From IMG/VR virus record IMGVR_UViG_2534681940_000040: 21,195 nucleotides of DNA; one strand, given 5' to 3'. This DNA comes from a virus. Taxonomy: Duplodnaviria > Heunggongvirae > Uroviricota > Caudoviricetes. The notes beneath the pieces were generated by a model that was not told the origin of the DNA, did not search any database, and saw only the letters and a list, made by a program, of their open reading frames with translations. Shown in pieces: positions 10,136-12,071 of this stretch. A program made the translations under genes and the position numbers. The first letter of the stretch is position 1. Each line of letters begins with the position of its first letter.

Positions 10136-10513
10136 ATGACGACACCAACCAGACGGATAAGTTTCTATCTGAAGCCCGCCGCCGTCAAGAGTGAACAGGA
10201 GGCGTGCAATTACCTCGATAGCCTGCCAGCCTCCGAACGCAGCCGCGCGCAACGCGCGGCCTTTCTGGCTGGGCTAGCACTCATAAAGCGCAACCCAGCA
10301 TTTGCCTACTGGATGGCCGAATGGCCAGAGGACAACCTCCCCTTCAATACCGTTAGCATCAAGGAAACATACCAGGCTAATCAGCCTAGCGGAGTTGAAT
10401 GCAATTTTTATAAAATAAAAAGAATATTCAGACCTTATTCCCAGAATAATCTGATAATTGTATGTGAACTAATAAAATACATTGTCATACGAGTCACCTG
10501 TACTCCCTGTTGA
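10136..10513 (+). CDS. parR: ParR-like centromere-binding protein, 3' end disrupted
   Basis: N-terminal RRISFYLKPAAV...LDSLPASERSRAQRAAFLAGLALI matches the R1 ParR ribbon-helix-helix region as recalled. The C-terminus runs through an AT-rich segment and ends inside IS3-derived sequence from about 10482. Confidence 0.7.
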   Translation: MTTPTRRISFYLKPAAVKSEQEACNYLDSLPASERSRAQRAAFLAGLALIKRNPAFAYWMAEWPEDNLPFNTVSIKETYQANQPSGVECNFYKIKRIFRPYSQNNLIIVCELIKYIVIRVTCTPC

Positions 10514-11158
10514 TGCCAGCAGTTTTGCTTCTTTTAGTCGCTCCGTATAGGCCAGTGATACATACTGAGAACCTTTATCACTGTGATGGACTGTGCCGGA
10601 CGGCCGACGGGCCCACAACGCCTGCTCCAGTGCATCCAGCACGAATGTCGTTTCCATAGACGATGAGACTCGCCACCCCACGATACATCCGGAAAACACA
10701 TCAATGATGAACGCCACATAGACGAAGCCCTGCCATGTGCTGACGTAAGTAAAATCAGCCACCCACAGCTGGTCAGGACGTTCTGCCACGAACTGACGGT
10801 TTACGCGGTCGCCTGCGGAAACGGCTTTCCGGCTGACGGTAGTACGGACCTTTTTACCCCGGAGAACACCGGCAAGTCCCATAACCGCCATGAGGCGCGC
10901 CACTGTACATCTGGCCACCCTGATACCTTCGCGTAACAACTGGCGCCAGACTTTACGCACACCGTACACCTGATGATTTTCATCGTATACGCGCTGTATC
11001 TCTCTCTTCAGCCAGTCATCGCGCTGCGCACGGGCACTGCGTTTATCCGGATGATGTCGCTGTTGCTGACAGTGGTAATCCGTTGACGGGGCAATATGCA
11101 GTTCACTGCATACCGGTCCGACCCCGTACTGCTCACGCAGCTTATCCAGCAGCGGCAT
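10469..11158 (-). pseudogene. insF: IS3 orfB transposase (InsF), C-terminally truncated
   Basis: 229 aa against 295 aa in the complete copy; diverges after ...TGSTGDSYDN. Confidence 0.85.
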
Positions 11159-11538
11159 TATTTTTTCCAGAGGCGGTCGAACTCCGCCTTCGCAAAATAA
11201 GCGGAAGCCTGGCGAAGGATATCGTTACTGCGGCGCAGTTCACGATTTTCACGTTCCAGCTCTTTCAGACGCTGACGTTCAGCGGTGGTGAGTCCACCAT
11301 CACCGCCCCCGGTATCCCGCTCATGCTGACGAACCCACACACGCAGAGTCTCTGGTGTACAGCCAATCTTTGGGGCAATGGAACGAATTGCCGCCCATTG
11401 TGAGTCATATTCGCCCTGACTTTCCAGAACCATACGGACTGCCCGTTGACGGACCTCGGGGGAAAAACGTGTATTTTTAGTCATCCTGTTTACCTCTTTC
11501 TCAGGGAGTTTAGTCTCCAGGATTCCCGGGGCGGTTCA
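10482..11538 (-). mobile_element. IS3, truncated copy (left end intact, orfB side deleted)
   Basis: Near-identical to the complete IS3 at 18743-20052 in inverted orientation. Terminal IR TGAACCGCCCCGGGAATCC ends at 11538; identity is lost at 10482. Confidence 0.85.
11158..11484 (-). CDS. insE: IS3 orfA (InsE)
   Basis: 108-aa ORF differing at one residue from the orfA of the complete copy; HTH transposase N-terminal protein. Confidence 0.9.
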
Positions 11539-12071
11539 ATCTGCTGGCCGGAACTAATGAATTTATTGGTGAAGGTGACGCATACATTCCGCCTCATACA
11601 GGTCTGCCAGCAAACAGTACCGATATTGCACCGCCAGATATTCCGGCTGGCTTCGTGGCTGTTTTCAACAGTAATGAGGCATCGTGGCATCTCGTTGAAG
11701 ATCATCGGGGTAAAACGGTTTATGACGTGGCTTCCGGCGACGCGTTATTTATTTCTGAACTCGGTCCGTTACCGGAAAATGTTACCTGGTTGTCGCCGGA
11801 TGGAGAGTGTCAGAAGTGGAACGGCACATCCTGGGCGAAAGATGCAGAAGCAGAAAAACTGTTTCGGGTACGGGAGGCAGAAGAAACAAAAAACAGCCTG
11901 ATGCAGGTAGCCAGTGAGCATATTGCGCCACTTCAGGATGCCGTAGATTTGGATATTGCGACGGAGGAAGAGGCATCGTTACTGGCTGCATGGAAGACAT
12001 ATCGGGTATTGTTGAATCGTGTTGATACAACAGTAGCAGCGGATGTTGAGTGGCCAGTCGCCCCACAATAA
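11539..12071 (+). pseudogene. tail fibre assembly protein (Tfa/gpG family), 5'-truncated by IS3
   Basis: Open frame from the IS3 end (...[35 protein letters not shown]...) to a C-terminus ...[26 protein letters not shown], typical of Tfa proteins. The first approximately 17 codons are missing. Confidence 0.8.

Follow-up and report, generated by a model that had tools for sequence, protein, structure and literature searches.

A deletion joint with a truncated IS629 in Sp13, a defective P2-family prophage of Escherichia coli O157:H7

In phage P2, the cos site and the terminase, capsid, lysis, baseplate, and fibre gene classes are bounded by the replication region on one side and by the fibre assembly gene on the other; the latter is G and differs from tfa. 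The FI-D tail operon of P2 runs in the same direction as H-G, and P2 is not known to carry a ParM/StbB partition module. The locus described here resembles P2 in its integrase, repressor, replication endonuclease A, and tail genes FI, FII, E, T, U, and D. Nonetheless, P2 is an unsuitable template for reading it, because P2 does not possess the partition module and because the tail genes of the P88-like phages, from gpU to the sheath, are natively located on the opposite strand. The deletion was mapped on the P88-like genomes P88_4B11 (NC_049391) and vB_EcoM-569R5 (ON470599) and on the O111:NM FWSEC0005 prophage.

Sp13 is the sole P2-like prophage of O157 Sakai (PMC2669165), and it was described as lacking most morphogenetic genes and as incapable of self-propagation (Asadulghani et al. 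2009, PMC2669165). The same study reports that mitomycin C induces Sp13 to excise and replicate and that DNase-resistant particles contain Sp13 DNA. The test for mitomycin C-inducible particles put forward by an earlier note on this DNA has thus already been carried out (PMC2669165), with a more nuanced outcome, the particles presumably being supplied by other prophages. According to Rump et al., the IS629 site of Sp13 occurs only in clonal complex A6, the youngest of O157:H7. The deletion, the 'IS3 partial' element, and the missing morphogenetic genes of Sp13 are already known from the Sakai annotation and from Asadulghani 2009.

As for the insertion sequence (IS), many of the deletions documented in O157 are attributed to IS629, one of their major sources. 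Deletions beside IS629 that depend on the IS-excision enhancer (IEE) extend from a few nt to >40 kb, and the joining by IEE shown biochemically is microhomology-mediated (PMC9943667). In laboratory systems (PMC8860574), the IS3-family transposase, with or without IEE, generates deletions that leave part of the IS and have <=6 bp of endpoint homology. The Sp13 joint resembles the IS629/IEE deletions of EHEC in being IS-adjacent, in retaining part of the IS, and in having little or no endpoint homology. Conversely, it differs from them in that it is devoid of microhomology, whereas the IEE activity is microhomology-mediated, and in that it is a fixed natural allele.

The stretch of DNA that was analysed (21,195 nucleotides; hereafter, the window) contains a deletion joint inside Sp13, a defective P2-family (P88/Xuanwuvirus-like) prophage that adjoins yecA in E. 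coli O157:H7. In the Sakai genome, the corresponding 21.1-kb region (NC_002695.2, 2593039-2614158) is labelled 'prophage Sp13, P2-like phage', and the element at 2603749-2604805, at the same site as the remnant in the window, is annotated as 'IS1203 Family: IS3 partial' with a length of 1057 bp. The window and Sakai Sp13 share the yecA-side integration site, the gene order, and the position of the 1057-bp remnant between the partition gene and a truncated tfa, with identical junction sequences; they differ in a homopolymer that is one A shorter in the window, putting the 3' end of the partition gene out of frame, and in a full-length IS629 in gene D that only the window carries. In FRIK944, the locus is flanked by yecA and tRNA-Leu, and the PGAP products comprise an integrase, a repressor, a replication endonuclease, ParM, and a 'plasmid partitioning/stability' protein, followed by an incomplete IS3-family transposase, a tail fibre assembly protein, a serine O-acetyltransferase, and P2-type tail genes. 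The coordinates of the features are collected in Table 1.

Table 1. Features around the Sp13 deletion joint, in window coordinates, with the evidence for each assignment
Feature	Position	Strand	Evidence
parM, actin-like plasmid segregation ATPase, intact	9172..10131	+	Pfam StbA_N E=1.8e-82; ParM C-terminal domain E=3.5e-69
StbB/ParR-like partition gene ORF	10136..10513	+	Pfam Plasmid_stab_B E=1.2e-28
Native AT-rich intergenic stub, last phage DNA before joint 10481/10482	10451..10481 (31-32 bp)	+	Identity to vB_EcoM-569R5
IS629/IS1203 (IS3 family) remnant, IS bases 1-1057 of 1310	10482..11538	-	99.8% identity to 18743-20052
IS629 orfA, 108 aa, intact	11158..11484	-	Pfam PF01527 (HTH_Tnp_1) E=5.7e-13
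tfa', lambda-type tail-fibre assembly gene, 5'-truncated	11539..12071	+	Pfam Caudo_TAP E=5.4e-40
Hexapeptide-repeat acetyltransferase ('serine O-acetyltransferase')	12115..12687	-	RefSeq annotation
Full-length IS629/IS1203, 1310 bp, in tail gene D	18743..20052	+	Self-BLAST, flanks, inverted repeats, slippery site, Pfam on OrfB

By collinear similarity over the early and tail regions, the prophage is classed as a P88-like member of the P2 family (Peduoviridae). The window matches the Xuanwuvirus P88_4B11 at 93.6% identity over 60% of its length, and its positions 3025-10481 match 569R5 at 96% identity. More generally, intact P88-like phages have the same partition module and 93-97% nucleotide identity with the window over the early, replication, partition, and tail regions, and the O111:NM prophage also shares its tfa-acetyltransferase-gpU arrangement. 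In P88_4B11 and in the O111:NM prophage, the gene order is rep, parM, par, small genes and cos, portal, terminase, scaffold, capsid, and small terminase, followed by head completion, lysis, tail completion, baseplate, fibre, and tfa, and then, on the opposite strand, by gpU, tape measure, E, tube, and sheath. The native orientation of these last genes in intact P88-like phages also rules out that the minus-strand tail genes of the window result from an inversion by way of the two oppositely oriented IS629 copies (10482-11538 on the minus strand and 18743-20052 on the plus strand).

Whereas the intact phages keep a segment of 14.5-15.1 kb that spans the par-distal genes and cos up to the 5' end of tfa, and have no IS there, this segment is missing from the window. 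On the O111:NM template, the loss amounts to ~15.1 kb and 20 annotated genes (the match breaks off at the end of par, L004 4877, and starts again at 20000), while on the P88_4B11 template it amounts to about 14.5 kb. Neither the window nor the annotated O157 loci contain portal, terminase, capsid, holin/endolysin, baseplate, or fibre genes. The central claim of the earlier note, i.e., a large deletion that has brought the ParM/StbB partition module close to a tfa truncated at its 5' end, the two being separated by an incomplete IS3 element, is thereby borne out by the intact P88-like relatives, and the endpoints that it proposed to locate by alignment to an intact P2-like genome are now mapped on these genomes. 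The absence of cos and of the terminase, capsid, lysis, baseplate, and fibre genes likewise stands when measured against these relatives, though not with P2 as the template on which that note relied. The functions that the prophage retains are integration, immunity, replication, and partition, besides some tail genes; having lost cos along with the genes for packaging, head, lysis, baseplate, and fibre, it cannot build its own particles. The statement that it 'cannot make particles' therefore agrees with the gene content and with what was published for Sp13, but it needs to be narrowed, because Sp13 excises, replicates, and enters DNase-resistant particles (PMC2669165). Gene D of the window is disrupted, and the tape-measure gene of Sp13 is frameshifted, a lesion unrelated to any IS. 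An IS30 beside gene D was considered as a further case of a deletion joint with a truncated IS and discarded, as its Sakai copy aligns with IS30 copies of plasmids in two pieces that include both ends, which suggests an internal gap and not an end truncation.

On the left side of the joint, parM, which bears the RefSeq name 'plasmid segregation protein ParM' and is also present in intact P88-like phages, is followed by the partition gene. In Sakai, FRIK944, and phage 569R5, this gene ends, by alignment, at a TAA corresponding to window positions 10447-10449. In the window, the alignment and the translations made with and without the extra A indicate that 1 nt was lost from an A6 run (about 10417-10421) and that the frame is shifted, so the partition ORF reads over the deletion joint into the IS remnant. 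The adjoining ~85 bp, regarded in the earlier note as AT-rich sequence of unknown origin, are indeed AT-rich (21.8% GC at 10395-10481, against 50.9% for the window), but their origin is native: they consist of the 3' end of the partition gene and of intergenic phage DNA that matches vB_EcoM-569R5 up to base 10481, save for one homopolymer A, and the two sequences diverge only after this base. The same AT-rich stretch also occurs in other E. coli genomes without any IS.

The IS remnant aligns with the full copy over 1057/1057 bases with 0 gaps and 2 mismatches (self-BLAST). It retains the left inverted repeat (IRL), an intact orfA, and the frameshift site, the slippery A6 at IS nt 373 of the full copy, where it has no mismatch; its left end, TGAACCGCCCC..., terminates exactly at 11538. 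On the opposite side, the final 253 bp, which include the right inverted repeat (IRR) and ~70 C-terminal orfB codons, are absent when compared with the full copy, in keeping with the earlier observation that the right end is missing from 10482. Accordingly, only one of the two terminal inverted repeats (TG...CA) is found, the IRL TGAACCGCCCCGGG... at 11538. In the truncated orfB', the Pfam HTH_21 domain and the rve core are detected and the C-terminal rve_3 region is missing, and PGAP labels the remnant transposase as 'incomplete; missing C-terminus'. Since both the right end and the end of the transposase are gone, the element is predicted to be an immobile remnant and not a functional IS member. 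The full-length copy in gene D, which belongs to the IS1203 family in RefSeq genomes, is flanked by a 3-bp target duplication, CGC, a normal arrangement that supports the usual simple insertion by IS629; its junction with gene D has no contiguous match in any complete genome. The flanks of the remnant, ACA at 10479-10481 and ATC at 11539-11541, differ from each other, and its IRR-side flank was deleted along with the IS end.

On the right side of the joint, tfa' has lost its first 46 nt relative to the intact 192-aa O111:NM orthologue, i.e., the start codon, 15 codons plus 1 nt, and the ribosome-binding site, and no in-frame ATG, GTG, or TTG occurs before 11655. Judged from these features, the gene, whose DNA is ~90% identical to lambda tfa, is a 5'-truncated pseudogene, though PGAP calls a 176-aa protein from a CTG (11541). 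The IS3 left end does abut this gene, exactly at 11539, although it does so in codon 16 and not at 'codon 18 or so' as first described. The acetyltransferase that follows gives a weak Pfam Hexapep match (24.1 bits, under the 27-bit cut-off), and the same pairing of tfa with an acetyltransferase is seen in the intact O111:NM prophage as well as in the large phages JL22 and Ro157c2YLVW. Window positions 11538-18744 run collinearly with the O111:NM prophage, starting at its tfa nt 46, with 92.8% identity, which implies that the right flank is native and correctly oriented for a simple deletion.

The two junctions are of a different nature. At the right junction (11538/11539), the IRL, ending in ...GGGGCGGTTCA, is joined to ATCTGCTGGCC, i.e., tfa from nt 47 onward; this is the same configuration that a simple IS insertion would be expected to produce, and the junction may equally well be the original insertion site. 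At the left junction (10481/10482), the phage sequence ...AATAAAATACA is joined to TTGTCATACGAG, which corresponds to the IS from nt 1057 downward, and the phage and IS bases differ on both sides of the break, leaving 0 bp of microhomology. On sequence grounds, this is the only joint that can be regarded as demonstrably novel. In the intact phage, a 9-bp G+C-rich hairpin lies between convergent genes 17 nt past the break point. The earlier proposal of a break at an IS end, as in an IS3-mediated adjacent deletion, is not supported: the novel joint lies 253 bp inside the IS, at IS nt 1057 and not at a terminus, so the classical adjacent deletion from an IS end offers no explanation for it.

The 4.3-kb arrangement around the joint is found at ~100% identity in 264/5426 complete E. 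coli genomes, and the left junction alone and the right junction alone are each detected in 264/5426 as well. The junctions never come apart, that is, none of the 5426 genomes has one but not the other, and the carriers of the 4.3-kb structure, among the matches listed, are O157:H7 or E. coli without a serotype. In other collections, the left junction is matched by one short IMG/VR contig, which ends at the IS, and it has no match in metagenomes. An intermediate with a full IS629 in tfa and the structural genes kept is absent from the 5426 complete E. coli genomes and from the viral and metagenome collections, and the junction pattern of an intact IS629 in tfa has 0 matches in viral and metagenome contigs. 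Hence, the deletion joint appears uniform wherever Sp13 occurs, with no intermediates seen.

Since no intermediate was found, we infer the order of events from the joint itself. IS629/IS1203 would have transposed normally into tfa after nt 46, with its transposase facing away from tfa and the IRR toward the fibre genes. One deletion of ~15 kb would then have taken the IRR-proximal 253 bp of the IS and tfa nt 1-46, together with everything upstream to 31 bp past the partition gene, including the fibre, baseplate, lysis, head, terminase, and portal genes and cos, and the ends would have been rejoined bluntly. The trigger may have been the transposase acting at the IRR, followed by processing of the break on both sides and homology-free joining, possibly with the participation of the O157 IEE. 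The target duplication that would prove the insertion at tfa nt 46 is itself deleted. That the deletion was provoked by IS629 itself, after its insertion in tfa and as a single event, is a reading in which we place roughly even confidence. The documented IS629-adjacent deletions and the partial-IS products of laboratory systems speak for it, and the lack of microhomology at the joint, which the joining shown for IEE employs, speaks against it. The narrower suggestion that the joint is the natural fossil of an abortive transposase- or IEE-dependent excision of IS629, in which a one-sided 15-kb deletion started from the IRR and ended 253 bp into the IS with no microhomology, is put forward only tentatively.

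The deletion may instead have been independent of the IS, with the IS629 in tfa as a bystander and a spontaneous 15-kb loss, by slippage or break repair, that happened to end 253 bp inside it. A blunt joint with 0 bp of microhomology and with neither endpoint at an IS terminus would suit such an event, the phage-side break lies 17 nt from the stable hairpin in AT-rich intergenic DNA, a plausible fragile site, and the prophage carries other IS-unrelated lesions, e.g., the tape-measure frameshift; moreover, a deletion that ended inside the IS by chance would leave an identical sequence. However, a random endpoint would fall within the 1.3-kb IS of a ~36-kb prophage in only a few percent of cases, by a rough estimate, IS629 is documented as a source of deletions in O157, and partial-IS deletion products are known from experiments; an IS-independent loss is considered unlikely. 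The history implied by the earlier note, in which IS629 first sat somewhere in the interval from the partition genes to cos, a deletion generated by its IRL end reached tfa nt 46, and a later, separate deletion took the IRR end and some phage DNA beside it, draws on the fact that the IRL/tfa junction lies exactly at the IS terminus. Nevertheless, it involves three events, against two for insertion followed by deletion, and it still needs a second deletion that ends inside the IS, of the same class as the one invoked by the IS-provoked reading. Furthermore, copy-out/paste-in transposition of the IS3 family is not expected to yield classical adjacent deletions, and no full-length IS was found at the joint, all three junction counts being 264; this sequence of events is thus judged improbable.

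The IS remnant and the tfa'-acetyltransferase segment could also have been acquired together, by recombination from another phage or a plasmid, in which case the missing genes would have been replaced and not deleted in place. Such an exchange would be in line with the lambda type of tfa, with the occurrence of the tfa-acetyltransferase pair in the unrelated large phages JL22 and Ro157c2YLVW, and with the left and right flanks of the joint being closest to different P88-like relatives. Mosaic flanks are normal among these phages, though, and the intact P88-like prophage of O111:NM has the tfa-acetyltransferase-gpU order, collinear with 11538-18744 at 92.8% identity; in addition, the junction between IS nt 1057 and tfa was not found outside Sp13 in the 5426 complete E. 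coli genomes, and the acquisition of the whole module is held to be very improbable. Lastly, the many IS629 copies of each O157 genome could lead to contigs misjoined at the repeated IS, but a truncated IS with a unique internal breakpoint is not expected from a repeat misjoin, and each of the two junctions is matched without interruption, as a single hit, in 264 complete genomes that were produced by many laboratories, so that an assembly artefact has a negligible chance of being the explanation.

The joint is real and precisely mapped, but it is an ordinary scar left by a deletion in a defective prophage that was already known. At the sequence level, it accounts for the inability of Sp13 to form virions of its own, and it provides the exact breakpoints, i.e., phage base 10481 with IS nt 1057 on one side and the IRL with tfa nt 47 on the other, while correcting two misreadings, namely a foreign AT-rich flank and a joint made at the IS end. 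Considered as a marker, the joint is fixed among the O157:H7 genomes with Sp13 (264 complete genomes). If the deletion was provoked by the IS, the joint would represent, in nature, the kind of partial-IS deletion product known from the laboratory IS3/IEE systems. If it is the fossil of an abortive excision, a P88-like phage would have become, in one step, a capsid-less, replicating partition element that is packaged by unrelated prophages.

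IS30 breaks gene D at about nt 270 of the gene, and in Sp13 an ogr homologue does not follow. The right end of the prophage thereby shows a second loss associated with an IS. In Sakai, the IS30 copy is annotated as 'partial'; it seems to keep both ends, with the gap lying internally. The tail module that is still present also undergoes independent decay, as the tape-measure gene is split; the FRIK944 annotation calls it 'frameshifted', and the Sakai record lists it as a pseudogene.

Gene D of the window also carries a full-length IS629/IS1203. Among 5426 complete E. coli genomes, none has a contiguous match to the exact junction of this copy, and therefore the source strain of the window has a private IS629 insertion. 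Other O157 strains carry IS1203 in the sheath gene or elsewhere in D. Moreover, the P88-like prophage of O111:NM FWSEC0005, structurally complete otherwise, has its own IS1203 copy in the replication endonuclease gene, showing independent IS629/IS1203 insertions on this phage type across different EHEC lineages.

Features of the window and counterparts in Sakai (L005), two P88-like phage sequences (L002, L003) and the O111:NM FWSEC0005 prophage (L004)
Feature	Window	Other sequences	Remarks
Overlapping ORFs	5287-5904, 5598-5828		Sakai counterparts annotated 'antirepressor' and 'derepression protein' (P4 epsilon-like)
ParM/StbB partition module	9172-10450	L002 35087-36362; L003 18143-19421	Adjoins replication gene
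tfa and hexapeptide acetyltransferase pair	11539-12687		
5'-truncated tfa	11541-12071		Annotations disagree
Tape-measure gene	13345-16184		Minus strand; a 278-aa and a 708-aa ORF that overlap
Full-length IS629/IS1203	18743-20052		Within tail gene D; 3-bp duplication CGC
IS30	~20155-21195 (continues past window end)	L005 27108-28297	Within gene D
IS1203		L004 774-2083	Truncates replication endonuclease gene

The truncated tfa is flagged as a pseudogene in neither annotation: PGAP treats it as an intact 176-aa protein (WP_001310336.1), with an implied CTG start directly after the IS end, while the Sakai record gives a 138-aa 'tfaQ' starting with GTG at 11655. Together with the hexapeptide acetyltransferase gene, it is a mobile cassette; the pair is found at 91-93% identity in JL22 (99.6 kb) and vB_EcoM-Ro157c2YLVW (80.7 kb), which are large, unrelated phages, and also in P88-like prophages of O111:NM. 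In its place, P88_4B11 has a fibre segment that can be inverted, along with a DNA invertase.

The Sp13 repressor is devoid of a peptidase motif, yet the prophage is inducible by mitomycin C, and the literature ties this unusual inducibility to the antirepressor/derepression ORFs.

The partition module is kept intact in Sp13, except for a frameshift at the A run at 10417-10421. This run has five residues in the window versus six in Sakai, FRIK944, and phage 569R5, and each junction match listed among the 264 genomes carrying both deletion junctions has one gap relative to the window. With one A lost, the StbB-like partition gene is out of frame over its final ~10 codons, and the ORF at 10136-10513 continues past the deletion joint into remnant IS sequence, coding for 125 aa rather than 104. 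The missing A may reflect a mutation specific to the strain, or else an error in sequencing the homopolymer. The plasmid-type ParM/StbB module, located beside the replication gene, is native to P88-like temperate phages, and its presence hints at a plasmid-like maintenance stage in these phages.
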